From: Mytilus californianus
Taxonomy: Eukaryota
Length of the DNA: 64,000 nucleotides
Reading direction: 5' to 3'
NCBI RefSeq assembly: GCF_021869535.1
Contig: NW_026262581.1
Coordinates: 95,976,001-96,040,000, forward strand
In this document: positions 113 through 32,400 of the stretch, one piece after another
Position numbering within the stretch: the first letter of the stretch is position 1
How the letters are laid out: each line of letters starts with the position of its first letter
Program-made: the position numbers and the translations under genes
Notes under the pieces: model-generated
Seen by the model: only the letters and a program-made list of their open reading frames with translations
Databases searched by the model: none
What the model was told of the DNA's origin: nothing

Positions 113-180
113 TCCTTTTGCTCAGTTGGTACAGCAGTGGCTTACTGTGCCGGGGGTACAGGGATAGAATCCCAGCTCTT
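113..180 (+). pseudogene. Degenerate tRNA-derived sequence (tRNA pseudogene or SINE head)
   Basis: A-box-like GCTCAGTTGGTACAGC, anticodon-arm-like GGC-TTACTGT-GCC and T-arm-like GGG-ATAGAAT-CCC occur at tRNA-like spacing. The acceptor stem does not pair. Confidence 0.45.
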
Positions 181-227
181 ACAGTAATGAATTTTGTTTA
201 TCTTACAGTGATGAAGATATAGTCATT

Positions 228-2852
228 ATGTATAAAAATTCAACCTTCTGGATAAGTGGAGACCTTAATCTTCCTGATATAGATTGGCCATCAATGACAA
301 TAGAGGGCAAAATGTACCCGAAGGAAATGAATGAAATCTTTTTAGATTTATTAAACAATCTAGGTTTGGATCAGTTAGTAAATTTTCCTACCAGGAAAGA
401 TAATATTTTAGACATCTTTTGTACCAACCAACCAAATCTTATAACCAAAATTAAATCAATATCCGGTATATTGGATCACAACATAGTTTTGGTTGATGCC
501 ATTTGTAAGCCTAAAAGAGCTACGCAATGCCCCCATAAAAAAAAATTTCTTATGGAAGAAGGTAGATTTAGAAAAAATTAAAAATATTACCAAATCATTT
601 ATATATGATCTGCTAAGCCAGACCACATTAGAACTTACTATAGATCAGTGGTGGATTAAGTTTAGAGATGGAATAATAAAAATCATCAATGATAATATAC
701 CAAGTAAAATGACAAAATCTAAATATACAAATCCCTGGGCAAATAAAGAAATTGATAGTTTATGTAAAAAACAAAGACGAGCATTTAATAAAGCTAAAAA
801 AACAGGGAAACAAATCCACAAAGATAAATACAAAAAGCTTAAAGCAACAGCTCAAAGAGAAATTAGGAAAGCCCGAAGTAAATATATGGAAGAAATCATA
901 AGTCCACAACTGGAGGAAAAACCAAAATCATTTTGGCAATACATAAAAGGGAAAAAGACTGAAACATCAGGAGTCTCACCTTTGAGAGGTAAAGATGGAT
1001 TACTTTATAGTGATCCACAAACACAATCAAATATTTTAAATGAACAATTTAAAAGTGCATTTACTAAAGAAGACAAAACTTCAATGCCACATAAACCTAA
1101 AAGTCCCTACCCCACCATGCCAGATATAACCATTAATATCAATGGCATAATTAAACTCCTTAAAAATATAAACCCAGATAAAGCTAGTGGGCCTGATAAT
1201 ATCCCTACTATTTTCCTTAATAAATTCTCAGAAGAGATATCCCCCTTCCTTGTATTCTTTTTTCATAAAATCCATAAATGATGGAAAAATCCCAGAAGAG
1301 TGGAAACAGGCAAATGTTGTGCCAATTTTTAAAAAGGGAGATAAGCATAATGCAATTAACTATAGACCGGTTTCTTTAACGGCTATATGTTGTAAGGTTT
1401 TAGAACACATCTTAACAAGTAACATTAGAAAACATTTAGATTTAGATAATATTTTAAATGATTGCCAACATGGCTTTAGGAGTAAACGTTCCTGTGAAGC
1501 ACAACTTGTTATCAGCATCAAGGACATAGCAGAAGGTAATCAAGTTGATGCAATACTTTTAGATTTTTCCAAAGCTTTTGATAAGGTCCCCCATGAAAGG
1601 TTAATAACAAAGCTTTATTATTATGGTATACGTGAAAATAACTTACTTTGGATAAAAGATTTTTTGTCAAACAGGCAACAGCAAGTCCTGCCTAACGGTG
1701 TTCAGTCTTCCAAATTAGCTGTTGACTCTGGTGTTCCTCAGGGCACAGTATTAGGCCCAACTTTATTTTTGTTATTCATAAACGACCTACCTGAGCATGT
1801 CTCCTGTAAGGTTCGTCTTTTTGCTGACAACTGTTTACTTTATGAAACATCAAATAATAAAAATGAGTCTCAAGCACTCCAAAAAAACCTATCAAGCCTT
1901 GAAAATTGGGAATCTGAATGGCAAATGAAATTTAATCCTGAAAAATGCTATGTCATAAATATTTCTAAAAAGTGGAAAACTAATTTATTTCAATATAAAT
2001 TACATAACCATGTACTTGAATCTGTCAAAGACAGCAAGTATCTAGGAGTTACTATAAGCAATGATCTTGAGTGGGGGCCCCATATTAATAATATAACTTC
2101 AAAGGCAAATAAAACACTAGGATTTTTACGTAGAAACATGAAAAATTGTACACGTAAGGTTAAAAACCTTACGTACACATCACTTGTGCGTCCGACAGTC
2201 GAGTACTCCTCACCAGTTTGGGATCCGTACAAACAAAGCCAAATAAACCAAATTGAGCAGATACAGCGTAAGGCAGCAAGATATGTTTTTAATGACTATA
2301 ACGATAGATCACCAGGTGCTGTCACTGGTACATTGTATGTTAAACAAACTAAAATGGGAAAACTTGCAATCCCGTAGAACAAAAGCTAAGCTTGTCTTGA
2401 TTTATAAGATTAATGGGGGGTTGGTCGAAGTCACTAATGACGTCCTGACACAATCTGACAGGCGAACTAGAGGCCTACATAAATTTCGACATATATATAT
2501 ACCAATAAAGACTTTTTTAAATCATCTTTTTTCCCAAGTACTATTGCTGTCTGGAAAGATCTCCCAGAAACAATTTGCATGTCACCCTCCCTAGAATCCT
2601 TCAAAGGTGGTATCTCCACCTTAACATTTGGAGGTTCTAGTCTGGCTAATTAATTAGTGTATTTAAGCCACTGTACATACTGTGAATATGTTTAACATTA
2701 AGCTACAACTAATGTTATTTTAAATTGTAATTGAACTGTGGCAAATATTTTTATTTTATAACAAAATTTTCGACATCCATTTGCATGTACATAGCGCCAC
2801 AGTTCCGGGATATTCCACACACCGGAGTCTTTCCTGTATCAGGAAGAAGAAG
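228..2852 (+). mobile_element. 5'-truncated, inactivated CR1/L2-group LINE (end of APE endonuclease, RT, 3' UTR, GAA tail)
   Basis: Endonuclease motifs SGDLNLPDIDW and NILDIFCT. RT motifs NYRPVSL, QHGFR, LDFSKAFDKVPH and SGVPQGTVLGP. The catalytic FADD is mutated to FADN, with frameshifts near 570, 1270 and 2340. It ends in AGGAAGAAGAAG (2841-2852). Confidence 0.92.
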
Positions 2853-13007: not shown

Positions 13008-14464
13008 TTTTTATACGACCGCAAAAAAATTTTGTGGTCGTATATTGGTATGACGTTGGCGTCATCGTTGTTGTCGTTGTCGTCGTCGGCGTCGTTGTTC
13101 CAAGAAACATTGGTTTTCGCACTCTAACTTTAGTTTAAGGGAATGGATCTCTATGAAATTGTACCATAAGGTTCAATACCACAAAAGGAAGGTTTGGATT
13201 GATTTTGGGGGTTATGGTACCAACAGTTAAGGAATTATAGGGGCTAAAAATAAGCATTTTTGTAACTTCCAGACATAACTTGTGTGTTAGTGTATGGATC
13301 TCTCTGACATTGTACCACAAGGTTTCATATCACAAAGGGAATGCTTGGATTGATTTTGGGGGTAATTGCCTCAAAATTTTAGGAATTAGGTACCAAAAAA
13401 GGGGCAAAAAACAAGCATTTTTCTAGTTTCATGACAATAACTTGTGTGTAAGTCTATAGATCTTTCTGAAATTGTACTACAAGGTTCCATATCACAAAGG
13501 AAAAGCTGGAATTGAGTTTGGGGGTAATTGCCCAAAATGTTTAGGAATAAGGGGCCAAAAATAAGCATTTTTCTAGTTTCCAGACAATAACTTGTGTTCA
13601 AGTGTATGGATCTCTCTGAAATTGTACTGCAAGGTTCATATCACAAAGGGAATGCTTGGATTGATTTTGGGGGTAATTGCCTCAAAATTTTAGGAATTAG
13701 GGGCAAAAAAAGGGGCAAAAAGCAAGCATTTTTCTAGTTTCATGACAATAACTTGTATGTAAGTCTATGGATCTTTCTGAAATTGTACTACAAGGTTCCA
13801 TATCACAAAGGGAAAGCTGGAATTGAGTTTGGGGGTAATTGCCCTAAACGTTTAGGAATAAGGGGCCGAAAATAAGCATTTTTCTAGTTTCTAGACAATA
13901 ACTTGTGTTCAAGTGTATAGATCTCTCTGAAATTGTACTGCAAGGTACCATACCACAAACGGAAGGCTGGGATTGATTTTGGGGGTAATTGCCTCAAAAT
14001 TTTAGGAATCAGGTACCAAAAAGGGGCAAAATACAAGCATTTTTCTAGTTTCAGGACAATAACTTGTGTGTAAGTGTATGGATCTTTATGAAATTGTACT
14101 ACAAGGTTCCATATCACAAAGGGAAAGCTGGGTTTGAGTTTGGGGGTAATTGCCCTAAATGTTTAGGAATTTGGGACAAAAAAGGGGCAAAAAAAAGCAT
14201 TTTTCTAGTTTCCAGACAATAACTTGTGTTCAAGTGTATGGATCTCTCTGAAATTGTACTGCAAGGTACCATACCACAAAGGGAAGGCTGGGATTGAGTT
14301 TCGGGGTGATGAATCATTAGAGGGTTCAAAAAATTTGGGGGGGGTTTGCTTTTTTTTTTCTTTAAAATTTTCCATTTTAAATTGGTTATTTCTGATTTAT
14401 ATATAAAAGCAAATAATAATGATATGGTTTGAATAGGTAAATTAAAAAAATTTAAGTTCTTAGA
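13008..14464 (+). mobile_element. Helentron-type non-autonomous element (HINE/DINE-1-like), 5' part, interrupted by the Gypsy insertion
   Basis: T-run, then subTIR ATACGACCGCA, partial inverted copy, (GTC)n microsatellite and a 150/161-bp tandem array. It resumes after the LTR at 23503, and an uninterrupted relative lies at 61785-62676. Confidence 0.8.
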
Positions 14465-15099
14465 TGAAGCGCCAACCGTTATTGTAAATGGTTTGGCAGA
14501 TATTATACAAATATCAATTAAAGTCAAAGTAATAAAACTGTTTTGAAGTCCAAACTTTGGATAATCAAGAAATAAGATTTGTTTAAATAAATAAAAGCAG
14601 CTTTATTAAAAGCTAATATCATTAACAATAGTTATTAATAAATCAATTAAATAGAATTGCAGTGTGTGCCAAAATACCTGAATAAATAATTCTGGGTCAC
14701 TGTCTGAAACTTAGCTGTTCGCCAGCGGCTATAATTTGAAACTGACTATACTTTTCTCTAAACGTTTGAAAGATCAAGTTAGTCAATACACCTAAAAATA
14801 GTACGCGTGTACACAATTGTGAAAGTAAACCAAAATGGCCTTTAACTTGACAAGTATGATTTTGGATAATTCTAACATTATAAAAGGATAACTATGGATA
14901 AAATAGGATGCATTAATAACTTCTGAATAAGGTAATTATGTTGTAACTATAGAAAATCATTCCGCATAACAAGCAAGTGTACAAAAGTGAAAATATGTAT
15001 GACCTAGTTTCGCGGAAAATATACACCGGGAAATACAAATGAAAAGCAATGAATGAAGGTTATTATTAAAAGAATACTGTAAATAATCGTGGCACAACA
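14465..15099 (-). repeat. 3' LTR (635 bp)
   Basis: Differs from the other LTR by 2 substitutions and 1 single-base indel on manual comparison. Confidence 0.95.
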
Positions 15100-15110
15100 C
15101 TGCTCCTCTC
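15100..15110 (-). other. Polypurine tract
   Basis: GAGAGGAGCAG on the minus strand immediately before the 3' LTR. Confidence 0.7.
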
Positions 15111-15275: not shown

Positions 15276-15863
15276 CTATTTTCTTGATTCAATGACACAA
15301 ACAGAACTTCTGATCTTCTTAGAGGATTTGGGTTGATTCTCGGTTAATCTATTTTGGAGTTTTCTCACTTCTTCTTTAAGATCTGTCTTCCTCTTTTCCA
15401 GTCTCTCTATAAAATTCCCAAATCGAAGGCACTCAAATGTATGCTTTTCTTCTAAGACTTTAATTTGAATTTCATGTGTTGATTTCATTTCAACCAATTT
15501 ATTCTCTAATTCCAAAATTTGTTCATCTTTGGGGTCAATATTTACTTCCACAATTTCAATCTCCTCTTCTTCTTGTATAAATATTTTGTCATTTATACAT
15601 GTTGATTCAAATTCTGTAATGTCTTCACCCACAATCACCACATAAGGATTAATACTTTTCATACAAATATGTTCTTTGTTAACATGAGGTTTTTTAAGAT
15701 CCTTTAAATGTCTTTGCCATTTAGCATGGGAAATTGTTTTAAAGTTACAGGTTTTGCATACAAATGGGACTCGGTCAACCGAAGCATGTTTAATTATAAA
15801 ATGTTGAATTGTGTTTTTTGTATTTCCTCGGAAAGGACACTTCGAACATTGAAACAGTACCAT
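15276..15863 (-). CDS. Retrotransposon ORF3: two C2H2-like zinc fingers, acidic linker and coiled coil (195 aa)
   Basis: Motifs CSKC-x11-H-x4-H and CKTC-x12-H, then EEEEIEIVEV and heptad-rich LELENKLVEM...LEKRKTDLKEEVRKLQNRL. The ATG lies 4 nt after the acceptor-like TTTTATTCTTACAG. Confidence 0.8.
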   Translation of the reverse strand: MVLFQCSKCPFRGNTKNTIQHFIIKHASVDRVPFVCKTCNFKTISHAKWQRHLKDLKKPHVNKEHICMKSINPYVVIVGEDITEFESTCINDKIFIQEEEEIEIVEVNIDPKDEQILELENKLVEMKSTHEIQIKVLEEKHTFECLRFGNFIERLEKRKTDLKEEVRKLQNRLTENQPKSSKKIRSSVCVIESRK

Positions 15864-15990
15864 AATTCTGTAAGAATAAAATTAATCAATACTTAATACT
15901 TTATAAAATTAACAAGTCTTAAATATTATTTTTATACAGGAATAAATAAATACATGTATAAAATGTGTATGTTTACTCTTAACATAACAT

Positions 15991-18900
15991 TTATTCTAAT
16001 TGATTGAGTTTTCTATTAACCCAGTCTGGTATTTCACCTACATACGGTTTTAATTTATCTATATGAACAACTTCAGTTCTAGATTTAAAACAGATTTCAT
16101 AGACCACTGTGCTCAAAACTTTTGAAATAAAATAGGGACCAAGCCATGGGGATTTAAATTTTTGTTTTATAGTTTTGTCAAATTTATATACAAGATCTCC
16201 CTTTTTATATTTATGTTTTGTCAGTCTAGTGTCATGATTCTTTTTAAGTCGTTCTGCATTGGTCTTGAGATGTTTCCTGGCAATATGATACATATCTTGT
16301 AATCTATCTTGAAGATCTAGAGCATACTCATTTTGCCCTTCATATTTCTGGTCTGGCAGTGGATATATCAATTTTATTGGAATACTTATTTCTCGACCTA
16401 GCATTAAAAAATTAGGTGAGAAGCCTGTAGCAGGATGTGGTGTACTACGATAAGCTGCCAGTAGTAGATTGATGTTTACATCCCAGTCTGTAGCATTCTT
16501 GTTGATGAAACTTTTTATCATTCCTGCCAGGGTACGATTAAACCTCTCAATAAGCCCATTTGAGGCAGGATGGTAAGGTGTTGTCCGGGTCTTTGTTATT
16601 TCTAATATGCTACAGACAGCGTTAAACAGTTCACTCTGGAAATTACTGCCTTGGTCACTGTGCAGTTCTAGTGGTATTCCAAATCTCGTTATAAATTCCA
16701 TTACAAACTTATGTGCCACAATATCAGCCTTTTGATGTTGCAAAGGATAAACTTCCATCCATCGGGTGAAATTATCTCCTATTACCAATAAATATTTATT
16801 TCTCCTCTGTGTTTGTGGTAAAGGTCCAATTACATCAATACTAACTCTGTCTAAAGGGTAACCCACTCTATAATCAACCAACCCAGCTTTTGATTTTCTA
16901 CTTTTTCTTTTAGTACAAATTACACAATTTTCTATGTGTATTCTGACGTCTTTTGTCATTTGATACCATGTAAAATAATTTTTCATTTTCTGGACTGATT
17001 TCTTAATACCAAAATGACCAGAATATGCAGTATCGTGACAGCTGATTATTATTTCTCTCTTTATAACAGCTGGTACTAGAAGTTGTAAGTGATCTTGTTC
17101 ACTTTTAACTTCTCTCCATTTTTGGTATATTACTCCACCAATACGGACAATATTACTCCAATTCAGCCAATAATGTCTTACTGCTGGGCTGAAACTGGCA
17201 CATTTATCTCTATCTGGTGTTTCTTCTTCTTCATCCATCCATTTATGTAAAAAACTGTAATCTGGGTCTTCTTTCTGGAATGTACTCATCTCTTTTTCTG
17301 TGTATTTAGTTAGCCAACTGGAACAATGACTATGGCTTGACTGTGTTACATTCCTTATCATAGGTTTATCAGTTAAATTCTTTACATTATCAACCTTTTT
17401 TCTAAATTCTGACCATTCTTGTTTCCATTCAATACATTCAGTGCAACTGGAATCAAGATTTCCCTCTTTCAAATGTATACAAAGATCATTTTCATTAGAA
17501 TTTCTAGACATTGCATCAGCATTCAAATGTTTTGTACCTGGACGGTGTTGAATGTCAAAATTGTATTGACTAAGACTTTCAATCCATCGTGCTAACTGTC
17601 CCTGAGGGTCTTTAAATGCAAATATCCATCTTAATGATCCATGGTCTGTTCTCAGCAAAAATTTTCGTCCAAGTAAATAGTGCCGAAATTGCTGTATAAA
17701 TGTGACAACTGCAAGTAGTTCTCGTCTTGTGACACTATACCTCTGTTGTACCCTGTCTAGCTTCTTTGATGCATATGATATAACCTTTTCTTTGTTTTCT
17801 TGGATTTGAGACAGCACAGCGCCAATACCTATATTAGATGCATCTGTGTCCAATATAAACATTCCGTCTGATTGTGGGTATGCCAATATTGGTGATGTTG
17901 TCAGTGCGTTTTTCAATTTTTCAAAAGATTCTTGACAGGGATGTGTCCATTTAAAAAGTACATCTTTTCTGGTAAGATGACTGAGTGGAGCTGCAATGTC
18001 ACTGAATTTGAATATATACTGCCTGTAATAATTACATAGACCAAGGAATTGTTGAATCTCTTTTGCTGTTGATGGAACTTTCCAGCTATGTACGGACTGT
18101 ACTATCTTTGGATTTGGCTTTATTCCCTCTTTTCCTACCACATGGCCTAGGTATAATATTTCTTCTCTTAACAGATCACATTTAGATGGTTTAAGCTTGA
18201 GCCCTGCATTTATAAGTCTTGAAAAAACTTCATCTAGTCTTTTAAGATGTTCTTTTTCATCAGAACTAAAAATTATAATATCATCGAGATATATCAGGAG
18301 TGTTTGCCATTGAAGTCCTCTAAATATCAACTCCATGCACCTCTGGAAAGTGCTTGGGGCATTGCAGAGTCCAAAAGGCATCTTTGTATATTCATACAGG
18401 CCATACTTGGTAATAAATGCAGTCTTTGGTTGGTCTGATTCTTCTACCAGTAACTGCCAATAACCACTTTGAAGATCGAGACATGAAAATATGGACGCTG
18501 ACGCTAGACAATCAAGGCACATATCTATGCGAGGAATTGGGTAGGCATCTTTAATTGTAAGATCGTTGACTCTGCGAAAATCCACACACCAGCGCACAGA
18601 GTTGTCTTTCTTCCGAACAAGTACTACAGGTGAAGCCCATGCTGATTTTGATGGTTTGATAACTCCCGTCTTAAGTTGATCTTGTAAGTTCTCAAATTCT
18701 TCATTCTCAAATCCTATTGGTGTCCTTCTAAGTGGCTGTCTTACTGGTGCTGCACCAGCTGTGTCTATTCTATGCTTTATAAAGGAACATGTTCCAACAT
18801 CAGTTTTAGAACCAGCAAATGCCTTGCTGTTCTTGAGGAGCATATCTGAAAGCTTTCGTTTGGTCTCTTCATTTGCTATGTTTTTACTACTTCTTTCAAA

Positions 18901-20097
18901 TAAATCCTTAAGATGATCTGGTAATGCAGGAATTTTGGCCTCATTTCTGCATTTATCATCCATCTCCAAGGAATTTTCTGCTTTACATTTCCGAATGGTA
19001 CTATTCCAGTCATCAGGAATACCTACTGGTTCATCTGTAAGGCTCATATTCATCTTCAAATTGTGCAACTTGCAGATATTCTTGGTATTATCGTCCAAAG
19101 GTTTTGTACTGTTTTGGATGTCATCAAACTGTGTAATATTTGTAACTGGATGTAACTCTCCTATTAAATAATTTCTTTTCAACTGTACAGGGTGGTCCTC
19201 CATATTGACCAGTCTAACGGGGATGATTTTTTCAAAAGGGTCAACAAGGATTTGTGCAACCATAATTTTCCGATTATCCTCAACCACTGGTTGAAGCATG
19301 GTATATCTGGTATCTATAGCATCAGTATTATCACTCCCACCAAATAATATCATCTCAGAATTGGCTGGAACGGTTACATTTTCAGTTAAAACCACTCTTG
19401 CTATCATGTCTGACTTGCGGTTAACTTCACACTCAATCCATTTTCCATTCAGTTGAATTCCTTTTCTAGAGTTTACTGTTATATCCATTTCATCAAGGAC
19501 ATCACAGCCTAGCAACAAATCATCACCAATTGTTGCTACATATACATCCCAGACAAACTTTGAGTCTCCAAGTGTTAACGTCACTGCTGCTATACCTTTT
19601 GTTCCCAATTGCTTCCCTGCTTCGGCAACAACTAGTTTTTTCAGTGCTGGTTTCAACTTTGATCTGCTTGTTTTTGGAAGGTGGAAAAATATGTCTTCAT
19701 TTAAAACAGTAACTTCTGCTCCAGTATCAATTACAGCTTTTATTTTTTGATTACTGACTTCCATTGGTACCTTAATACTGGCTGCTGTTACGCGATCAAT
19801 TACAATTTCCTCTTTATTGTTAAATATCACGTCCTTTTCAGCACCTGTATCCTGACCACTATCACCATTTAAAGAGAGACCTTGGTCCTCCGGTATAGGC
19901 TCAGCAACAAAATCTGTATTTTCTTTCTTACTGGCAGAGTTCACCATTTGATTTTCAATCCCCATACCAAGAAACACACATTCAATGTTTCTATCTACTT
20001 GATCCTCATTTGTCTGGTTTATATCTACTAAGTCTGTTTTAATTTTGCAATTGCGGGCTGACACTTGGCCATTAGTCTCAGCCCGTTTTAGTTTAAC
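15991..20097 (-). CDS. Gypsy Pol polyprotein (PR, RT, RNase H, integrase), -1 frame relative to gag
   Basis: Uninterrupted ORF of more than 1350 aa. PR AVIDTGAE, RT CVDFR/YLDD, RH LDTDAS, INT zinc finger H-H-C-C plus IDVIGP/HSDQG/IERFNR, and a C-terminal WLGPY motif. Confidence 0.97.
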   Translation of the reverse strand, partial: VKLKRAETNGQVSARNCKIKTDLVDINQTNEDQVDRNIECVFLGMGIENQMVNSASKKENTDFVAEPIPEDQGLSLNGDSGQDTGAEKDVIFNNKEEIVIDRVTAASIKVPMEVSNQKIKAVIDTGAEVTVLNEDIFFHLPKTSRSKLKPALKKLVVAEAGKQLGTKGIAAVTLTLGDSKFVWDVYVATIGDDLLLGCDVLDEMDITVNSRKGIQLNGKWIECEVNRKSDMIARVVLTENVTVPANSEMILFGGSDNTDAIDTRYTMLQPVVEDNRKIMVAQILVDPFEKIIPVRLVNMEDHPVQLKRNYLIGELHPVTNITQFDDIQNSTKPLDDNTKNICKLHNLKMNMSLTDEPVGIPDDWNSTIRKCKAENSLEMDDKCRNEAKIPALPDHLKDLFERSSKNIANEETKRKLSDMLLKNSKAFAGSKTDVGTCSFIKHRIDTAGAAPVRQPLRRTPIGFENEEFENLQDQLKTGVIKPSKSAWASPVVLVRKKDNSVRWCVDFRRVNDLTIKDAYPIPRIDMCLDCLASASIFSCLDLQSGYWQLLVEESDQPKTAFITKYGLYEYTKMPFGLCNAPSTFQRCMELIFRGLQWQTLLIYLDDIIIFSSDEKEHLKRLDEVFSRLINAGLKLKPSKCDLLREEILYLGHVVGKEGIKPNPKIVQSVHSWKVPSTAKEIQQFLGLCNYYRQYIFKFSDIAAPLSHLTRKDVLFKWTHPCQESFEKLKNALTTSPILAYPQSDGMFILDTDASNIGIGAVLSQIQENKEKVISYASKKLDRVQQRYSVTRRELLAVVTFIQQFRHYLLGRKFLLRTDHGSLRWIFAFKDPQGQLARWIESLSQYNFDIQHRPGTKHLNADAMSRNSNENDLCIHLKEGNLDSSCTECIEWKQEWSEFRKKVDNVKNLTDKPMIRNVTQSSHSHCSSWLTKYTEKEMSTFQKEDPDYSFLHKWMDEEEETPDRDKCASFSPAVRHYWLNWSNIVRIGGVIYQKWREVKSEQDHLQLLVPAVIKREIIISCHDTAYSGHFGIKKSVQKMKNYFTWYQMTKDVRIHIENCVICTKRKSRKSKAGLVDYRVGYPLDRVSIDVIGPLPQTQRRNKYLLVIGDNFTRWMEVYPLQHQKADIVAHKFVMEFITRFGIPLELHSDQGSNFQSELFNAVCSILEITKTRTTPYHPASNGLIERFNRTLAGMIKSFINKNATDWDVNINLLLAAYRSTPHPATGFSPNFLMLGREISIPIKLIYPLPDQKYEGQNEYALDLQDRLQDMYHIARKHLKTNAERLKKNHDTRLTKHKYKKGDLVYKFDKTIKQKFKSPWLGPYFISKVLSTVVYEICFKSRTEVVHIDKLKPYVGEIPDWVNRKLNQLE
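20055..20097 (-). promoter_or_regulatory. Predicted -1 ribosomal frameshift signal (G UUA AAC plus stem-loop)
   Basis: GTTAAAC (20097-20091) directly before the gag TAA, a 6-nt spacer, then stem GGGCTGA-G-ACT-AATGGCCA-AGT-G-TCAGCCC (20084-20055). Confidence 0.8.
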
Positions 20098-20980
20098 GGA
20101 TTTCCGTCTGAAACCTGTCCTTGTGTCTGTTTCTGGTTAGGACATGACCTTGCATAATGTCCTTCTTCATTACATGCATAGCATCTTGTGTTGTTTTGCT
20201 TCTGGTTTTTGTCCTTGTTATGCCATCTTGAATTTTGACTGTTAAAATTCTTCTTAGGCTGGTATGTATTTGATGTTGGTAGTCTTGTGTTCATTATGTT
20301 CTCAATAGACTTGGTTACTTCAGTCGTGATACTTTCTTTCATCTCTCTACCAAACTGATTAAGACGCTCCTCTGTTACAAATCGTTTACCTCCAACTCGT
20401 CTCACTTCTATGTCATCAGACTGATCAGCATCAAAAGACGTTTCTTCTTCAATTTCAATTTGCCTTATTTGAGTTTTGCTTCTCAATCCATTTTTGCATG
20501 TAGTATGCCATGCTACAAGATTGATTGTTTCCTCCATAGTTTTAGGTCTTTTTGTCAATACATCATAGGCAATACTTTGATCATTTAATCCATTTAACAT
20601 ATGTTCAATTGAAATATTGTTGAAAAGTTGATTATCCATGCCTGGATATGCCTTCCTGACCATTGTCTGAATGCGAGCAGCATATTCATTTACTGACTCC
20701 TTGTAATTTTTTCTGGTAAATTGCAACTCTTTTCTGTAGGTTTCAGGCAGGTTGTTATCTCCAAATCTTCTTTCCATATCTTTGGATAAAAGTCTAAACG
20801 AGCTCCTTGTTTCATACGGTAGCTCTGATGCAAATTTTGCAGCTTCATCTTTAAGCACCAGTAATATTTCCTCAGCTTGACGTCTTGGGTCCCAATTATT
20901 TCTTTCAGCAATTATTTCAAATTGCATCTGAAATGTACTCCAGTCACTTCTTCCATTGTAGTCTTGAGTGATAACTATCT
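20088..20980 (-). CDS. Gag capsid and CCHC nucleocapsid segment
   Basis: Reads ITQDYNGRSDWSTFQMQFEIIAERNNW (capsid start motif) through to CYACNEEGHYARSC (CCHC knuckle). The frame opens just after a TGA near 21012; the start coordinate is approximate. Confidence 0.88.
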
Positions 20981-22059
20981 TGCATGCTAGATGTGGAGTC
21001 TGTTCTGTATCTCATTTGGTTGTTTTGCTGTCTAGTATAATTTGGTTGAAAATTTTGCTGTCTTATATTATCTGGTTGGTTATTCTGCTGTCTGTAATAA
21101 TCTCTTTCATTTTCAATTTGAAAATTTTGCTGTCTTGCATTATCTGGTTGGATATTCTGCTGTCTTGTATTTCCTGATTGAAAATTTTGCTGTCTTGTAT
21201 TATCTGGTTGGTTATTCTGCTGTCTGTAATAATCTCTTTCATTTTCAATTTCCCTTATTTTCTCTCTCAATTTAAATACTTCTTGTTGGTCATCACCGTT
21301 ATTATGGCTGATTGGTCTGTTGAAACTGGTGTCACTGAATGATGTAATTTGTGGTATATTAGCCGTCTTTGTCTGATCATGAAATGGATTAGATGCATAA
21401 GATGTGCTTATTCCTCCCGTGGAAAAGGACCATGTACTTGGTACACCTTGTACTTTTGCATAAGTGTTTGAAGCGCTACTGTTTTGAACAAATGTGCTTG
21501 TTGCACTTTGGGTATATGAACCAATGCTCTGTGCACTTTGGTTATATGGACCAGTGCTCAGTGCACTTTGTGTATATGGACCAGTGTTCAGTGCACTTTG
21601 GGTATAAGGACCAGTACTCAGTGCACTTTGGATATAATGACCAGTGCTCAGTGCACTTTGGGTATAATGACCAGTGCTCAATGCACTTTGTGATGAAATA
21701 CATGTGCTAGGTGCACCTTGAGTTTGAATATATGTGCTTGGTGCACTCTGATGTTGTACAGTTGTGCTCAGTGCACTCTGTACAGGAACATTAATGCTCT
21801 GTGCACTGTCTCTTATCATTGACACCCCCGGTTCATTTAATGAATTATTACTGGTTAAAGCAGGCAAGGTAAGTTGACTTGAAGAACCATGTAAACTTGG
21901 CATATTTGATAACCCACTATTTGAAACAAATTGTGTCTCATTTTCTCTTGTTAAGTCAGAAAAATTGGAATTAACACTATATAAGGGAGCTCTTGGGAAC
22001 CCTCCCCCTCTATTATTTAAAAACATTGGAAGTGGTAATTGTCTGTGTCTTAAATTCAT
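20944..22059 (-). CDS. Gag N-terminal low-complexity ORF (371 aa; S/T/Q/N-rich 10-aa repeats)
   Basis: ATG-started ORF after the 5' leader, with 12 x 10-aa QSALSTGxYT-type repeats and RQQNxQPDN repeats. It overlaps the capsid frame by about 70 nt. Confidence 0.8.
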   Translation of the reverse strand: MNLRHRQLPLPMFLNNRGGGFPRAPLYSVNSNFSDLTRENETQFVSNSGLSNMPSLHGSSSQLTLPALTSNNSLNEPGVSMIRDSAQSINVPVQSALSTTVQHQSAPSTYIQTQGAPSTCISSQSALSTGHYTQSALSTGHYIQSALSTGPYTQSALNTGPYTQSALSTGPYNQSAQSIGSYTQSATSTFVQNSSASNTYAKVQGVPSTWSFSTGGISTSYASNPFHDQTKTANIPQITSFSDTSFNRPISHNNGDDQQEVFKLREKIREIENERDYYRQQNNQPDNTRQQNFQSGNTRQQNIQPDNARQQNFQIENERDYYRQQNNQPDNIRQQNFQPNYTRQQNNQMRYRTDSTSSMQDSYHSRLQWKK

Positions 22060-22124
22060 ATTTAATATACCAGACTGAATTAATACTTAATTTCAGTTAC
22101 CTTTAATGTTATTAAAATATTTTT

Positions 22125-22765
22125 AGAAAAATACACTTTGTGTTTCAGTAACTCTTAGTGTTCAATTATTTTATATGGAATTATACACCTTGAGTTTCAA
22201 TAACTCTTGGTGTTCTATAGTTTATAAGGAAAAAATACACCTTGAATTTCAATAACTCTTGGTGCTCAATAATTTATAAGGAAAAAATACACCTTGAATT
22301 TCAATAACTCTTGGTGTTCAATAATTTATATTGAAAAATACACCTTGAATTTCAATAACTCTTGGTGCTCAATAATTTATAAGGAAAAAATACACCTTGA
22401 ATTTCAATAACTCTTGGTGCTCAATAGTTTATAAGGAAAAAATACACCTTGAATTTCAATAACTCTTGGTGTTCAATAATTTATATGGAAAAATACACCT
22501 TGAATTTCAATAATTCTTGTTCAATATTTTATATGGAAAAATACACCTTGAATTTCAATAACTCTTGTTGTTCAATATTTTATATGGAAAAATACACCTT
22601 GAATTTCAATAACTCTTGGTGTTCAATAATTTATATGGAAAAATGCACCTTGAATTTCAATAATTCTTGGTGTTCAATATTTTATATGGAAAAATACACC
22701 TTGAATTTCAATAACTCTTGGTGTTCAATAATTTTATATGTAAACCACACTTTGAGTTTCAATAT
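22125..22765. repeat. ~51-bp tandem array (~12 units) in the Gypsy 5' leader
   Basis: Unit approximately AAAAATACACCTTGAATTTCAATAACTCTTGGTGTTCAATAATTTATATGG. Confidence 0.9.
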
Positions 22766-22848: not shown

Positions 22849-22861
22849 ACCGCTGCCACCA
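22849..22861 (-). other. Primer-binding site complementary to the tRNA-Leu 3' end
   Basis: TGGTGGCAGCGGT, 2 nt inside the 5' LTR, is complementary to ...ACCGCTGCCA-CCA of eukaryotic tRNA-Leu(AAG/TAG) types. Confidence 0.8.
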
Positions 22862-22863
22862 AT

Positions 22864-23497
22864 TGAAGCGCCAACCGTTATTGTAAATGGTTTGGCAGAT
22901 ATTATACAAATATCAATTAAAGTCAAAGTAATAAAACTGTTTTGAAGTCCAAACTTTGGATAATCAAGAAATAAGATTTGTTTAAATAAATAAAAGCAGC
23001 TTTATTAAAAGCTAATATCATTAACAATAGTTATTAATAAATCAATTAAATAGAATTGCAGTGTGTGCCAAAATACCTGAATAAATAATTCTGGGTCACT
23101 GTCTGAAACTCAGCTGTTCGCCAGCGGCTATAATTTGAAACTGACTATACTTTTCTCTAAACGTTTGAAAGATCAAGTTAGTCAATACACCTAAAAATAG
23201 TACGCTTGTACACAATTGTGAAAGTAAACCAAAATGCCTTTAACTTGACAAGTATGATTTTGGATAATTCTAACATTATAAAAGGATAACTATGGATAAA
23301 ATAGGATGCATTAATAACTTCTGAATAAGGTAATTATGTTGTAACTATAGAAAATCATTCCGCATAACAAGCAAGTGTACAAAAGTGAAAATATGTATGA
23401 CCTAGTTTCGCGGAAAATATACACCGGGAAATACAAATGAAAAGCAATGAATGAAGGTTATTATTAAAAGAATACTGTAAATAATCGTGGCACAACA
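22864..23497 (-). repeat. 5' LTR (634 bp)
   Basis: TG...CA termini, near-identical to 14465-15099. Confidence 0.95.
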
Positions 23498-23502
23498 TTA
23501 GA

Positions 23503-23662: not shown

Positions 23663-26635
23663 ATTTTATTATCATTACCAATAATGTTACTGGAAGTTCA
23701 TTTGTCAGGTTGGTATTGGGATGTGAGTCATATTTCTCTTGATACTATTGGCAATGCACAAAAAGGGTATTTAATGAATAATTCTGCTAAAAAAAACAAT
23801 CTGGAAATATTAAACATGAGATTTATATGTTATTTTCAACCAACCATCCAAATGCAGTAAAACTACTCAAATGGAATGCATTCATATCAAAAAAGAAAAC
23901 CACTTCAAAAGTATGTTAAGTGGACTTTTTGACATTAATTCTAAATGATGGCAATAGCCTACAAGACCTTTGACCAAGGGAGATAATAACAAAAAACACA
24001 CAACAATTTCTAATAGCAAACACATAAACTTTCAGACATTTTAGTGGTGAAATTGCCATTAACAATCAATTTTTCTCTGAATTTCGAAGGAAAATATATC
24101 TTAAGGATATAAACAGTGACATTCTGTTGTTTGATAAGTAAATATGTTTTTCTTTTTATTTCAGGTTCTAACATTCCACATTAAAGGTGTCATTCCATGC
24201 TTATCTTCCAAGACATAGTAGTGATAAATACATTCTATGTTTATATTCCAGGAAGTTATACATGCTTTTATTTTGTAGTGTAGGTTTAGGGTAGTAAATT
24301 AAACATATGCTTGCACACAGAGATTTATTGTTATTACAATGTAACGGTGCATTGGATTTAAAATTTTGAAATTTGTTTATTATGATAATTTTGTTCCTAT
24401 TAAATATGCATTAATTTCATCTGTATGCACATTTGGCAAGGTCAGCATCTAGGCCAAAAATTGAGTGTGTGTATACTTGCATGACATCATATACAACTTC
24501 CTGTTTTTTTAGGTTTAATTTTTGTGTGATGTATAATCTTCATCTGTGAATTTTGGTTACTTGATGGGATGTGCATTCTATGTCCTTTAAACAAAACAAA
24601 AAGTTAGATAACCAGGAGGCGATTTCATTAACTTTTAAAACGTTATTCGGTTAATTCTAATGTAAGTAATTTTCCATATAACAGCCATAAAATTATGTAG
24701 GATTGATTTGTTTTGTTTAGTTTTTCTACGCATATTTAAGAATTTTAAGAAAGAACCAATTTTCATGACTATGTCAAATGTTGTTTAATGTATATTTTAC
24801 CAGAGACATTTAATTCAATGTATTTTACATAAAATTAGAGATTAATGGGTAACTGTATTATTCTTTTCTGATCTATATACTATTTACCCATGTCAATTTG
24901 TAATACATGATTTCAAAAATGAAATGTATTTATTTTACAATTATTAATATGATATTCATATGTCATGAATTAATAATAATTTTGCTTGTTATACATTGTA
25001 AATACTACAAATTTATTAAAAAAAATAATTTTAATTCACTTATTAATCTTATTGGAGAATTGAAGAGATGAATTAGTTTGGATAGTTGGCAACTTTTGAA
25101 TGTTTGTTAGTACAATTTATCCTATAAGAAGTCAGTTCATGGTTTCAGTAATTTAGGTATTTTTTTAAATCTTGTATTGCTTTTTATTTATTCTGTAAAC
25201 AGTTTCTGCCTTTTAATAATAGTTTTCACAAAATAAACAAAAATGCTAAAATTGTTAAAACATGTTTGTTGATGAACCACAATATAATGAACTGACTCTT
25301 ATGATCAATCATGTAAAAGTTTGAAGTATTGTAATAGTGTCACCTAGTGAATGCAACTCCTCTAAGACCATTTGACAGAGAGCTATCATACACAAGGCAC
25401 TGAATATAACATCTACATTCTGACTGGATGTGCATATTAATACATCCCGCACAGCCAAACAAACATTTCTTTTTATGATAGGTTTTAATGCCAGAATTCC
25501 AGGGATGACCATATTTCTACACCTCAGTCAAGCTTTGGGGTCACTCACTTGAACGTATATGAAATATAGGATTTTCATAACAACCAAAGTAATAACATAT
25601 GGTAAATACCTTCTTGCCCATATTTTTCCATAGTTTGATTTAGTTTCCTTCATCTGTTCTTAAAAAGAAATCAAAACTTAATTTCTCCTTCTCATAGCAC
25701 TTCATTGTAAACTATAACCCTGATGGCGGCTTTTTGAATTTGGAAGTAACAACACTTGTAACAGACCTTCATAGAGTATTCAGTAAATATACATATATTA
25801 AAAAAACATCTTGCCTCATAACTGTGTTTCTGCATGGGTTGTTTTCACTGCATCCATTTTCGAAAATAACAAATGAAGTACCCAAATGGTTTCAATGTAA
25901 ACTTTGACCTCTACTGGAAACCAAATTCAACTTTGATTTGAATTTCAATGATGATGGCAGATCTTGATTTGTTCCTGTTAAATTCATTCACTTTTTAAGA
26001 CTAGGGGATTAAAAGCTTGACCTATTAATTAGACACCAGTCTATTGTTTGACTTATTTGTTGCCCTCCAGAAATATTTCGGTTATTTTTGATGTTAGGTT
26101 CCTGTTTCATTGACATATATCCAACATCTCCTTTTACCGGTAATTATATCACCATATATAACACCAGTTAAAGATGGCAATTCTTATTACATTAAGGCAT
26201 GATCAAATAGCAGACTAGTAGATGTCACTAATCCAACTTCAAGATATTACTCAGCATTCATCTTTTTTTAACGTATGAGCAAACACAAATACCACAAGGT
26301 GAGTTATAAAATGTACTTGAAAACAAAACAAAAGACAATCCAAAAGAAACAGCTCCATTTCAATGATCAAGATAATTTGGGGAACATTTGAGATAAAAAT
26401 AAAAAAATAATTTATCCCTGTCAAATTTTAATATACCTGTCCCAAGATGGCAGCATTGTCAGTGGTTGTCAATTATAATTATCGTTTTTTGCTATTTAGA
26501 ATATTCGGTTTTGATAATAATCTCTGTAAAATTTATTTGCAACTTTAAGACTCCCTGCAATTGCAAGCTTGACACATTGTATAGACACTTGCCTAATGGT
26601 GAAGATTGTATGTTGATCTTAAGATATGTTTTGGC

Positions 26636-27993
26636 TTTGTTTGTTGTGGCATTGAGGTATTTGTTTCTTGTGGCATTGAGTAACAGTCTCATTGAGGTGT
26701 TTGTTTGTTGTGGCATGCAGTTACTTTCTCATTGAGGTGTTTGTTGTCTTTGAGTTACTCTCTCATTGAGGTGTTTGTTTGTTGTGGCATTCAGTTACTT
26801 TCTCATTGAGGTGTTTGTTGTGTCATTTAGTTACTCTCTCATTGAGATGTTTGTTTGTTGTGGCATTCAGTTACTTTCTCATTGAGGTGTTTGTTGTGTC
26901 ATTTAGTTACTCTCTCATTGAGGTGTTTGTTTGTTGGTTGTGGCATTAAGTTACTGTCCCATTGAGGTGTTTTTTTGTTGTGGCATTTAGTTAATGTCTC
27001 ATTGGGGTGTTTTATTTGTTGTGGCATTTAGTTACTGTCTCATTGAGGTGTTTGTTTTGTTGTGGCATTTAGTTACTGTCTCATTGAGGTGTTTGTATGT
27101 TGTGGCATTTACTGTCTCATTGAGGTGTTTGTTTTGATGTGGCATTTACTGTCTCATTGAGGTGTTTGTTTTGATGTGGCATTTAGTTACCGTCTCATTC
27201 AGGTGTTTGTTTTGTTGTAGCATTTAGTTACGGTCTCATTGAGGTGTTTGTTGTGGCATTTAGTTACTGTCTCATTGAGTTGTTTGTTTTGTTGTGGCAT
27301 TTAGTTACTGTCTCATTGAGTTGTTTGTTTTGTTGTGGCATTTAGTTACTGTCTCATTGAGGTGTTTGATTGTTGTGGCATTTAGTTACTGTCTCATCGA
27401 GGTGTTTGTTTTGTTGTGGCATTTAGTTACTGTCTCATTGAGGTGTTTGTTGTGGCATTGAGTTACTGTCTCATTCAGGTGTTTGTTTGCTGTGGCATTT
27501 AGTTAGTCTCATTGAGGTGTTTGTTTGTTGTGGCATTTAGTTACTGTCTCATTGAGGTGTTTGTTTTGTTGTAGCATTTAGTTACGGTCTCATTGAGGTG
27601 TTTGTTGTGGCATTTAGTTACTGTCTCATTGAGTTGTTTGTTTTGTTGTGGCATTTAGTTACTGTCTCATTGAGGTGTTTGATTGTTGTGGCATTTAGTT
27701 ACTGTCTCATTGAGGTGTTTGTTTTGTTGTGGCATTTAGTTACTGTCTCATTCAGGTGTTTGTTTGTTGTGGCATTTAGTTACTGTCTCATTCAGGTGTT
27801 TGTTTGTTGTGGCATTTAGTGACAGTCTCATTCAGGTGTTTGTTTGTTGTGGCATTTAGTTACGGTCTCATTCAGGTGTTTGTTTGTTGTGGCATTTAGT
27901 TACTGTCTCATTGAGGTGTTTGTTTGTTGTGGCATGGAGTAACAGTCTCATTGAGGTGTTAGTTGTGGCATTGAGTTACTGTCTCATTGAGGT
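26636..27993. repeat. ~40-bp GT-rich minisatellite (~35 units)
   Basis: Unit ATTGAGGTGTTTGTTTGTTGTGGCATTTAGTTACTGTCTC with length variants of about 35-41 bp. Confidence 0.95.
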
Positions 27994-28789
27994 ATCCCCA
28001 GTATCCTTCAATATTTAAATCTAAAGGGCCATTGAAAATTCTAAAATTAGAGCATTTTATTACAAAAAAGGTTAAAGCAAGTTATATCATTTATATTTAA
28101 TATCAAAAGAATGTTCAATTTTCCAAAATTTAGTCATTCAATAAAAAAAAAAGCAACATCGTGCAAAGTATAACCCTACCCAAAACATTGACAAAAATTC
28201 CAGACTTGTAAGGGTATAATATAAATTCAAAGTAAAGTCAAACCAAGATGAATGCCCAACAGATCTTAAATTTGCTCACACCAAACAACTCAACATTTTA
28301 TCAAAATCCTTAATGCAACAGCTGATAAATATGTGGGTTTTATAAGAATTCATCCTGGGAGATTATACAAATAAAGTTTAACAATATGTTTCAAATTTTC
28401 TAACATGTAATAATTTTTTTTAGATACAGTGAATCTTTTTTTCAGACTTTAAAGGACATGTCAAATCATTCTCATTTTGTTTAACTGATAAGACTTAGTA
28501 AAACAAGAATATATATCCATAGTACACCATTGCTCTGCTCCCACTATCGCATGTCCATGGTCAGTGAACTACAATATCTTGATCAAAACCCTATTTTGAT
28601 ATATTTGTTGAAGAGTTTACATCATAATAAACACCTGTACTAAGTTTAAAGTTGATGTGACCAAAATTTGATAATAAACTACTTTAACTAAAAACTAGTT
28701 GGATTGACTAACAGATAGAGGGAATAAAGATTGACACACAGACCAGATAACATAATGCCCTGTACTATTATAAACAATTCTCATTTTGC

Positions 28790-29476: not shown

Positions 29477-32400
29477 TTAAAAGTATCTGTAAGAATCAGA
29501 CTGTGGTCTTTGTTGTTGAGGACCTAATGGTCCAGCACCTTGCGACTGAGGTGGTGGTCCAGGCCATGGTCCTCGTGTACCATGCCCAGATTGCTGTCCA
29601 AACTGAGGCTTTGAAGTACTATCATCAAAATGTCCATGAGGAGATGAAAATCTTTGGGGAGGAGCAGCACTTCCTGCCATTGATATATGTTGTGGCGGTG
29701 GACCACCAGGATGCATAATTGGTGGTGGCTGCGACATAGATAGATTAAGTCCAGATGTTGTCATTATGGTTGGAGGGGATGAAAATCTTGATAATGGCCC
29801 AAGATTTAACGGAGGAGCAGTGTATGAGCAAGGAGGTCCTTGATGCATGGCAGTTGACTGGGAAAACATTGGTGGTGGCATGCCAGGAGGTGGCAATGAT
29901 GTTTGAAATGTCACAGCTGGCATGCCCATTGGTGCATTCAGATAGTTCTGCCTTCTATAGTCTGTGTCCTCATGTATAGGTATAGAAATTAGGTTACTTC
30001 GTCCTTGTTGCATCATTGCTATATTAGCCTGATAACCTTCGATCTGTGATTGTGTAGGTGGCTGTTGTAAAGGCTGTGAAATTAGAGGAGGTTGATGGAT
30101 ACCTCCCATTGTTTGTGGCAGAGTAGGAGGAGGGAGATGTGTAGGTACTACTAGGGGCTGGCTCTGGCCTCTAACTTCCTCGGACCTACGTGGGTATGAC
30201 TCTCCTTGAAGAGGGGGTCTAGAGCTAGCATCTCCATCATTTCTGACTGATGAATACATTTCATGCTGAGATGAAGTTTTAACTGATGATTTCACAGATT
30301 CTTTAGGTGTAGATGATTTTGCATTTTCTGCAGCTTCCTTCAAATGACGATGGTTTACATGAGCCTGTAAGTCTCGCTGTGATAGGTAAGTTCTACGACA
30401 TCCTGCTGCTCCATGTTTGGCTCCTCCATAACTACAGACATACACAGTCCCTAAGGCTGACTGTTCAATTCTTTGGACTGGTTCATCACATCTGTAATTA
30501 ATGAAGCAATTTAAAACATTTGTTAATAATTCAGCATCTTTTGCCTAATAGTATATTTACATTTTTCAGCTCAACTCTTTATTTGATTTTTCTGTCAGTG
30601 TGACTGTACCTGAATAACCTGGGAACACTTGTTTCATTTCGATGTGCAAATACATTGTCGAATCACATATTTAGTAACTGTTACCAAGGTAATAAACATT
30701 ACTTTTGAGTTAGACACACATTTTAACTGGTTTACCTGAGATCACACATTAATTTGCATGGGGGAAATAACCTAAAAAAAATTGCATGTGAATTAGCCTC
30801 AATAGCAGAATTCTCTCTAAACATGAGGTTTTTCATGAAAAACCTCTAATTTTCAAAAGCTAACAAAATTTGATGCCTTTATTTTAAGGAGAGTGATCAC
30901 ATGTTTTTAGACAAAATCTGGGCTACAGGAAAACACAAGGGTTAAAACTTGAAGCATTCCAAAAATTGTGTATCCATTTTTTATGAATGCTTAATATGGT
31001 TTATTTTAATTTATTTAAATATCTCACTGTATAAAGACTTGTTCAAAGGTTAAACTTAACATTTCAAAAATCCCTTTTTAACCTGAGAAATGCTTATGGG
31101 TATAAACAAAACATTATACAATGGGATATTTTAAATAAAAGAAGAATGTGTCTGAGGACACGAATGCCCCTGCTCAAGCTTTGCAATTTTCCAAAGTTAA
31201 AAAAGGCCATAACTCTTGAACGGTAAATGACTCACAACCAGAATTTGAACTCTGTCTGCATGTTGTGGTTCTCAGCATTGTGTATGAGTTTCATACAATT
31301 TGCATGAGGCAAACTAAATGGGACGGACAGATGGAAAGATAGACGGACAAGGGTAACACTTAATGCCCCCATTGCCGATGGCGGGGGCCTAATTAAAATA
31401 AATGGAGAATGTGGCTATGGGACACAGATGATGTCCCCACTTACATATAATGTTATAAAGGGGCATAAAAGTGATGCCACCCAAATTTTATCTTGATCTG
31501 TGTTTTGTGGTAATAAGCATTGAGTACAAGTTTCATGACATTTGGTTGAGGCAGCCAAAAGTTAGAGAACGGAAACCAATTTTGGGACATACCCACGGAC
31601 GTATGGACAAGGGTAACACTTAATGTCCCCACCGTCATAAAAATAATGCATTTGTTTTTGATGTATCAACCAATCTGTTTCCTAGTTGGTAGTGAAAAAC
31701 GTCAAAAATCAATGTTTTACGGCCTAATAATCTATGATGTTACGGTTTATTTCAACGTTTTATGGTCTTTTTTCACCTATGACACCACTTTGAATGATGT
31801 TTACCGCTAAAACAAAGTCAGTGACCCTATAATTATTTTACATCATTAAATTGGAAATTTATGTACCAACAACACATGGTTTTTTTATAGAAAAATTTAT
31901 GAATTTTAAATTGGAGATTTGATGCTTTTAAGACAAATTTAAGAACATTTTTCTCTGATTTTATGTGCTTTCTATACAAATGTTCACCTATTTTAAAAGA
32001 ATTCAATCAGTCATAATTCAGATAAATGGGGAATGTGTCCATAGCACACAGATGATGCCCCCGCTTGTATATCATATAAAGTTATAAAGGGACAAAACCG
32101 AAGAACGTTAAAAGTGACTCTAAAATGGTTAAAGTAACGCCACCAAAATTCAAACTTGATCTGTGTTTTGTGGTAATAAGCATTGTGTATAAGTTTCATA
32201 ACATTTGGTTGAGGCAAACTAAAGTTAGAGAATGGAAATCAACTTTAGGAGGAAGGACAGACGTACTTACAGACGGACAAGGGTAAAACTTAATGCCCCC
32301 TCCGCCACGGAGTGGCCATAAAAAAAAATGTTTATTTTTTTCACCTGTTTTACCTGCTCAAGTTCATTTTGGCATTTTAATACAGAGAACTTATGACAAT

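Follow-up and report, generated by a model that had tools for sequence, protein, structure and literature searches.

The env gene of errantiviruses is expressed by splicing. In these env-carrying Ty3/gypsy elements a third ORF lies behind pol (PMC13524379), and in bdelloid LTR elements the slot holds non-env ORF3s (GDSL, DEDDy, coiled-coil, or TM proteins), which are typically spliced (PMC5408684). Regulators encoded by LTR retrotransposons themselves are known in few cases. A tested one is CERV of the Caenorhabditis Gypsy/Ty3 element Cer1: its RNA is spliced, the protein combines a zipper with a Cys finger and an NLS, and export depends on it (PMC10309623).

The mussel gene analyzed here, ORF3, resembles each of these systems in part. 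Like the errantivirus gene it is a third ORF behind pol, but it lacks a signal peptide, a TM segment, and a fusion fold. The bdelloid ORF3s share its position and carry enzymes or coiled coils as cargo, comparable to the TatD fusions described below; however, they are family-specific in the text available, in whose main part (PMC5408684) the word “zinc” is absent, whereas the mussel finger ORF3 spans a deep lineage. With CERV it has in common that it is a non-env accessory protein of a Gypsy element with a candidate zinc finger, a zipper or long helix, and a basic, NLS-like motif; CERV is a product of splicing and acts on the element that encodes it; for ORF3 use of the acceptor was observed, and the protein may likewise act on its own element. 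CERV differs in its 517 aa, exons shared with gag, C4-type loop, and H, M, and G domains (PMC10309623, available text), whereas ORF3 lies wholly behind pol, starts at an ATG of its own next to the acceptor, and carries C2H2 fingers in tandem. It showed no homology to CERV, and membership in the CERV family was rejected on the different domain make-up, the varying acceptor phase, and the lack of a conserved gag fusion. The “novel system” of the original prediction was too strong a term, because spliced non-env ORF3 regulators (CERV, bdelloid ORF3s) are already known; the finger protein family itself appears to be undescribed. The literature consulted, including the available parts of PMC6238403 (MolGy clades), 10.64898/2026.05.21.726589, and PMC10294476, gave no account of it or of TatD in LTR elements, which Repbase or Dfam entries, subscription papers, and supplements may annotate.

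Structure and class of the element

The window, which is the whole stretch of DNA analyzed, comprises 64,000 nt of Mytilus californianus (NW_026262581.1:95,976,001-96,040,000, forward strand). Its minus strand carries a young, complete Gypsy element of 9033 bp (23497-14465), with these features:

22864-23497, minus: 5′ LTR, 634 bp, from LTR comparison
22849-22861, minus: primer-binding site, from sequence, which we take to be of tRNA-Leu type
22126-22764, minus: leader array of ∼12.5 units of 51 nt, hairpin-capable, with an AA/AA internal loop per unit
22095-22103, minus: donor-like AAG/GTAACT (cut 22101/22100), a motif in the sequence whose use was not seen
20088-22059, minus: gag with CCHC knuckle, from Pfam, in two frames in the window copy only
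15991-20136, minus: pol (protease, RT, RNase H, integrase, and p58 C-terminal module), from Pfam, open frame
15868-15880, minus: ORF3 splice acceptor, first exon base 15867, from RNA breakpoints
15276-15863, minus: ORF3, 195 aa, ATG at 15863, stop at 15278-15276
15100-15110, minus: polypurine tract, from sequence
14465-15099, minus: 3′ LTR, 635 bp, TG...CA, 99.5% identical to the 5′ LTR
14460-14464, repeated at 23498-23502, no strand: 5-bp target-site duplication, from sequence

The TG...CA LTRs, primer-binding site, polypurine tract, target duplication, and order of gag followed by PR-RT-RH-IN are those of Ty3/Gypsy. The gag ATG is at 22059 and the pol stop at 15991, and the intact 195-aa ORF predicted between pol and the polypurine tract, in the sense of pol, was confirmed at its coordinates. 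Because gag is one continuous frame of 622-704 aa in 5/11 other fetched copies and the break is limited to the window copy, a two-ORF gag design was rejected. Troyka elements have CG...CG termini and a 3-bp duplication in the available text of PMC12440569, and this assignment was rejected given the TG...CA termini and 5-bp duplication found here. An errantivirus-like, env-carrying class was also rejected, as ORF3 has neither signal peptide nor TM anchor. That ORF3 might be a degenerate Env or small fusogen is suggested by its position behind pol and by nothing else; no signal peptide or TM segment occurs in ten of ten members, the highest 19-residue hydropathy is 0.66 in the window protein (0.34-1.17 across the ten), and a zinc-finger fold is predicted, so that the view of ORF3 as a non-Env accessory gene holds and an Env origin is hardly credible.

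Elsewhere in the window, a Hakai C2H2 zinc-finger domain (Pfam E 5e-17) is encoded by an exon of a host gene at 29477-30544 (minus), broken non-LTR-type RT ORFs lie at 168-2594 (plus; RVT_1 E 2e-35), and minisatellite or satellite-like arrays with units of ∼40, 150-160, and 190 nt lie at 26600-28000, 13100-14350, 51200-51900, and 62970-63830.

Distribution, descent, and selection of ORF3

Across a large lineage of mussel Gypsy elements, ORF3 is a genuine accessory gene under selection. Forty matches in the mussel's own genome included nine full-length open copies at 96-100% identity and three broken but closely related copies; older subfamilies were also among them, as were diverged families at ∼30-37%. 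In 24/25 distinct loci from the first search, integrase immediately precedes ORF3 in the same orientation. A search with two diverged members gave 20 distant finger loci, with pol upstream in 17, gag only in one (an internally deleted copy), and neither within 10 kb in two. Altogether, homologous zinc-finger ORFs were found behind pol in ∼16 families with RTs 45-77% identical. Internal deletions removed most of gag and pol and kept ORF3 in L037 and L118, and an internally deleted copy, L147, kept pol and lost ORF3.

Homologues bearing names came from Mytilus coruscus, M. edulis, and M. galloprovincialis, and the named matches included no host gene copy of ORF3. In a profile search of 1.84 billion representatives, multi-finger host proteins dominated; six single full-domain hits were among the 150 matches listed, and those with names were all from Mytilus. 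Two proteins, P0176 and P0178, may come from other hosts. In an atlas search the first hit scored 0.91, and recognition was below threshold. Several public Mytilus gene models (P0003, P0006, P0007, P0132, P0174) consist of integrase pieces fused to ORF3 via its acceptor, or of ORF3 named as a host C2H2 protein (in one case HIVEP).

Phylogenetic analysis of RTs, with copies whose RT is broken omitted, placed the short and long forms of ORF3 each on a strongly supported branch, and ORF3 therefore descends vertically alongside pol. The short form (160-330 aa; RT 63-77% identical to that of the window) has an acidic linker and a helix, which in the closest families carries an H-x2-E-x2-R/K-x3-F/Y-I-x-R-L-E-like motif, whereas the long form (390-470 aa; RT 45-54% identical) is Pro/Ser/Thr-rich.

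Purifying selection acts on ORF3 at a level like that on integrase. Against five decayed sister-subfamily copies, ORF3 dN/dS was 0.21, 0.20, 0.29, 0.18, and 0.19 (dS 0.49-1.0; p 2e-4 to 2e-12), thus about 0.2 and not about 1, and integrase in four of these loci gave 0.27, 0.14, 0.31, and 0.20. In other families the ratio was 0.08-0.42, with one young pair at 0.51; columns in alignment windows below 40% identity were discarded, which slightly lowers dN and barely affects the L111/L112 pair (dN/dS 0.21, dS 0.17, 384 codons). Comparisons between families were saturated and unusable. Selection was undetectable among young copies, with six synonymous vs 13 replacement codons among the nine copies and dN/dS of 0.47-1.31 for L010-L012.

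To sample the slot behind pol by another route, 20 loci were picked by integrase alone, chosen to span families, and read downstream. Thirteen had a long ORF behind pol and seven had none (decayed, deleted, or lacking). Five of these loci (L145, L148, L149, L154, L156) encode proteins with another C2H2/C2HC pair and both acidic and basic stretches, and two of the five match the finger profile (E 9e-7 and 4e-5); these five proteins also have a basic N-terminus, an acidic tract, a conserved GRIxRKxTxP-like motif, and a C-terminal strand motif. Four of 15 proteins searched with Pfam contain a TatD DNase domain (E 4e-36 to 2e-9), at these loci:

L150:4345-6438, TatD ORF3
L146:4118-5317, TatD ORF3
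L151:1997-3772, TatD ORF3
L153:4722-6249, TatD ORF3

A finger-like motif precedes TatD in three of the four (L150, L151, L153). L152 is nearly a duplicate of L150, whose family seems to be present in many copies, with long open frames in pol; the L158 ORF resembles the N-terminal part of the TatD ORF3s and has no TatD hit, and L155 and L157 have yet other finger ORFs behind pol. A PHD-like finger also lies just behind the integrase match at L158:4044-4265. A YAG lies 0-12 nt before the ATG in nine of ten checked ORF3s of integrase-picked loci.

The TatD group joins the two ORF3 groups of the window's lineage on the RT tree with 97/97 support. This kinship suggests a cassette of finger plus effector and favors a role for ORF3 as a counter-defence or targeting adaptor, whose fingers would bring an effector to nucleic acid or to host proteins (piRNA or chromatin silencing factors, integration sites) and which would not be a classical activator. 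However, no homology between the TatD-type fingers and the window domain was found by hhalign (probability 0.5%), and the window protein has no enzyme domain; we consider such an adaptor unlikely.

The ORF3 splice acceptor and its transcripts

The predicted acceptor, TTTTATTCTTACAG, has its AG at 15869-15868, 4 nt ahead of the ORF3 ATG. Only four acceptor-like sites (at least 9/12 pyrimidines before YAG) occur on the sense strand of the element, two of them the LTR duplicate. A YAG lies 0-8 nt before the ORF3 ATG in 15/15 families, a proximity that may be slightly favored by the choice of each start as the Met ahead of the finger domain, and at least 8/12 pyrimidines precede it in 13/15 families vs 2/28 internal pol ATGs. 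All three acceptor phases are represented across families (7/5/3), so there is no conserved in-frame upstream exon such as gag; judged from these phases, ORF3 is not a gag fusion, and its upstream exon is likely non-coding.

The acceptor works in vivo. Six of seven RNA-type runs break exactly at it, namely X21, a raw run of which ∼6% was read, and X3, X2, X4, X5, and X7, which, like X1, are assembled contigs guessed to be RNA. In X21, seven reads depart from the reference exactly at 15867, on the element strand, with a depth of 5-9 on ORF3 and 0 on pol; the five contig runs, from two organisms and together with X21 from four studies, break at the same base, and their lack of pol coverage is no measure of expression because they are contigs. 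The X1 contigs stop short of the acceptor, and the DNA-like X16 spans it unbroken.

The proposed splice from the donor-like AAG/GTAACT at 22101/22100 fared less well: the motif is present 41 nt before the gag ATG, but none of the seven runs joins it, or the LTR, to the acceptor, at low depth and with most of the leader outside the references. The 22101 donor is not supported, and its position and sequence are unconserved in the three other families compared.

Instead, the letters upstream of the break in X21, X2, and X4, three of the six breaking runs, are identical to the terminal bases of a host exon of 223 nt, whose donor is GTAAGT (L131:8927-8705, minus) and which lies ∼17.2 kb upstream of the acceptor of copy L031 on contig C13. 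Variants in X2 and X4 fit this copy, which shares the ORF3 variants and a 3-nt gap in the 3′UTR; three further X4 differences do not match, so the assignment rests mainly on the neighboring host exon. Another copy, L036, was rejected as the source because its variants do not match. One frame is open through the exon, which ends in phase 0, and the join is out of the ORF3 frame, with a stop after 25 codons. No upstream exon was located for X3 or for X5 and X7. The traced RNA is a case of exon trapping by an intronic insertion and not the element's own mRNA, so spliced expression of ORF3 is borne out in the use of the acceptor and not in the origin of the traced upstream exon.

The sole traced RNA, host-driven and out of frame, speaks for a passive reading, in which ORF3 would be a recently captured host exon that reaches RNA through host read-through only. 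This reading is contradicted by the nine intact copies, by purifying selection equal to that on integrase, and by the presence of the gene in ∼16 families down to 45% RT identity; moreover, the acceptor-ATG spacing is conserved and the named hits include no host gene copy. We regard it as highly improbable.

An intron of a large host gene (L131, L135-L137; G000:C13 ∼22.41-22.50 Mb) holds copy L031 in the sense direction, and the acceptor of this copy truncates the gene's transcript; Pfam gave no hit on the scanned exons of that gene. An antisense donor, AAG/GTAATT, was also noted at 14931/14932 on the plus strand, inside the LTR (14814-14932), where 112 + 11 X21 reads exit at or next to the site into mixed sequences, as do contigs of all six other RNA-type runs, and many reads start near 14814. 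This suggests that an antisense LTR promoter drives chimeric host transcripts, mostly from older related LTRs.

The ORF3 protein and its possible functions

The protein consists of tandem C2H2-like fingers (residues 6-60), a packed extension (65-85), an acidic linker (96-120), a helix (111-175), and a basic tail. Finger 1 (C6-C9-H21-H26) is of the canonical C-x2-C...H-x3-5-H form, and in finger 2 (C36-C39-H52) the fourth ligand, H60, is unusually distant (H-x6-7-H), so “C2H2-like” was an apt description; H21, H26, C36, and C39 are invariant in 16/16 members and H52 nearly so. Pfam finger hits were below curated cut-offs (best E 2e-4), with weak jaz/met RNA-type hits in 2/16 members. Net charge is +10 over residues 1-65, -10 over 96-120, where an acidic patch had been noted, and +7 over the C-terminal 30; ten of ten members have an acidic 25-mer (-6 to -11) and nine a basic tail. 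AlphaFold (mean pLDDT 85) predicted two beta-beta-alpha fingers, the extension to residue 85, a disordered acidic stretch, and a 65-residue helix at 111-175 with pLDDT >90; the finger domain alone was modeled at pLDDT 90 and pTM 0.77. Of the coiled coil originally proposed, the long helix is thus predicted, and it may serve for dimerization.

The top profile neighbors are DNA-binding C2H2 fingers (CTCF, E 2e-10). CTCF, Kaiso, and Tramtrack are among the top sequence and fold neighbors, and they and AFV1p06 (2lvh) share beta-beta-alpha fingers with ORF3 as its best yet weak neighbors (Foldseek E at least 0.13; VIA Z at most 5.3); no match was found at E ≤ 0.001 in PDB or viral models. ORF3 differs from all four in having only two fingers, a longer linker, an atypical last His, and an additional strand that folds back onto finger 1; the acidic linker and long helix come after it. 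The best VIA match, a viral finger (Z 5.3, rmsd 1.8, 40 aligned), spans model residues 1-87, consistent with an extension that packs on finger 1 as modeled. A Gli/Zic-like packed pair was not among the fold matches listed, which excludes nothing. Such neighbors are biased toward DNA binders because most solved C2H2 structures are of DNA binders.

ORF3 is very probably a functional, element-encoded, nucleic-acid-binding accessory protein. That it is a nuclear self-regulator, acting on the element's own DNA to keep it transcribed, we put at about an even chance, and we favor this reading because of the architecture of ORF3. Transcription activators are commonly built in this way, from a binding domain, an acidic region, a helix, and a basic tail. 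A subgenomic RNA of the element, spliced and led by a non-coding exon, would supply ORF3; the long helix would dimerize the protein, the basic tail would import it into the nucleus, the paired fingers would recognize a repeated site in the LTR or leader, and the acidic or Pro/Ser/Thr-rich linker would recruit host co-activators or displace silencing. Against a DNA regulator, the traced spliced RNA is host-driven and out of the ORF3 frame, and the finger packing is unlike that of DNA-bound arrays (TM ∼0.4, rmsd 4-6 Å, for a model built without nucleic acid), with an inter-finger linker two residues longer than the canonical TGEKP type and atypical His spacing in finger 2. No ORF3 binding site was identified in the LTR or leader.

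The main rival, which we hold to be possible and distinctly less probable, is a Rev- or CERV-like RNA exporter: splicing to ORF3 would be the default, and the protein would bind unspliced genomic RNA, perhaps at leader hairpins, and license its export or block its splicing. A strong acceptor within the genomic RNA creates a need for such control, the non-canonical finger packing is compatible with it, and CERV itself, spliced, required for export, and equipped with a zipper, Cys finger, and NLS, is a precedent in the available text of PMC10309623. The leaders of short-ORF3 families, moreover, often hold arrays of hairpin units between primer-binding site and gag. These tandem arrays are family-specific (window 22126-22764; leaders of L045, L116, L127, L129, and L130), and the window family and L045/L129 have in common a C-AA-G/C-AA-G internal loop between stems of wholly different but complementary letters. 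The AA/AA hairpin gave nine, six, and two hits in these families and none in 160,000 strand-bases of host flank. The array is a candidate cis target of ORF3, and only a lead. However, this hairpin is present in only 3/13 families, the window array, taken in full, is no more stably folded than shuffled sequence (z -0.36), an array would mark unspliced RNA only with a donor upstream of it, and hairpins could serve packaging or export without ORF3. Furthermore, neither in sequence nor in fold was a resemblance to CERV detected, and no NES pattern occurs in the window protein or is conserved.

On a broader and tentative view, which we rate at somewhat below even, these elements would form a deep animal Gypsy lineage resembling complex retroviruses, in which a spliced finger cassette, kept in the env slot, would recognize DNA or RNA of its own element and bear interchangeable effectors (acidic linker and coiled coil, long Pro/Ser/Thr region, TatD nuclease), making a family of sequence-specific self-regulators or counter-silencing enzymes. 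The finger-TatD ORF3s of the sister lineages are a separate lead. For the mussel, insertions truncate transcripts because the strong acceptor traps host exons, and gene predictors already list ORF3 among host “C2H2 proteins.” With a small soluble protein family and at least 16 cognate LTR and leader sequences in one genome, self-activation or evasion of silencing and the co-evolution of fingers with their targets are directly testable.
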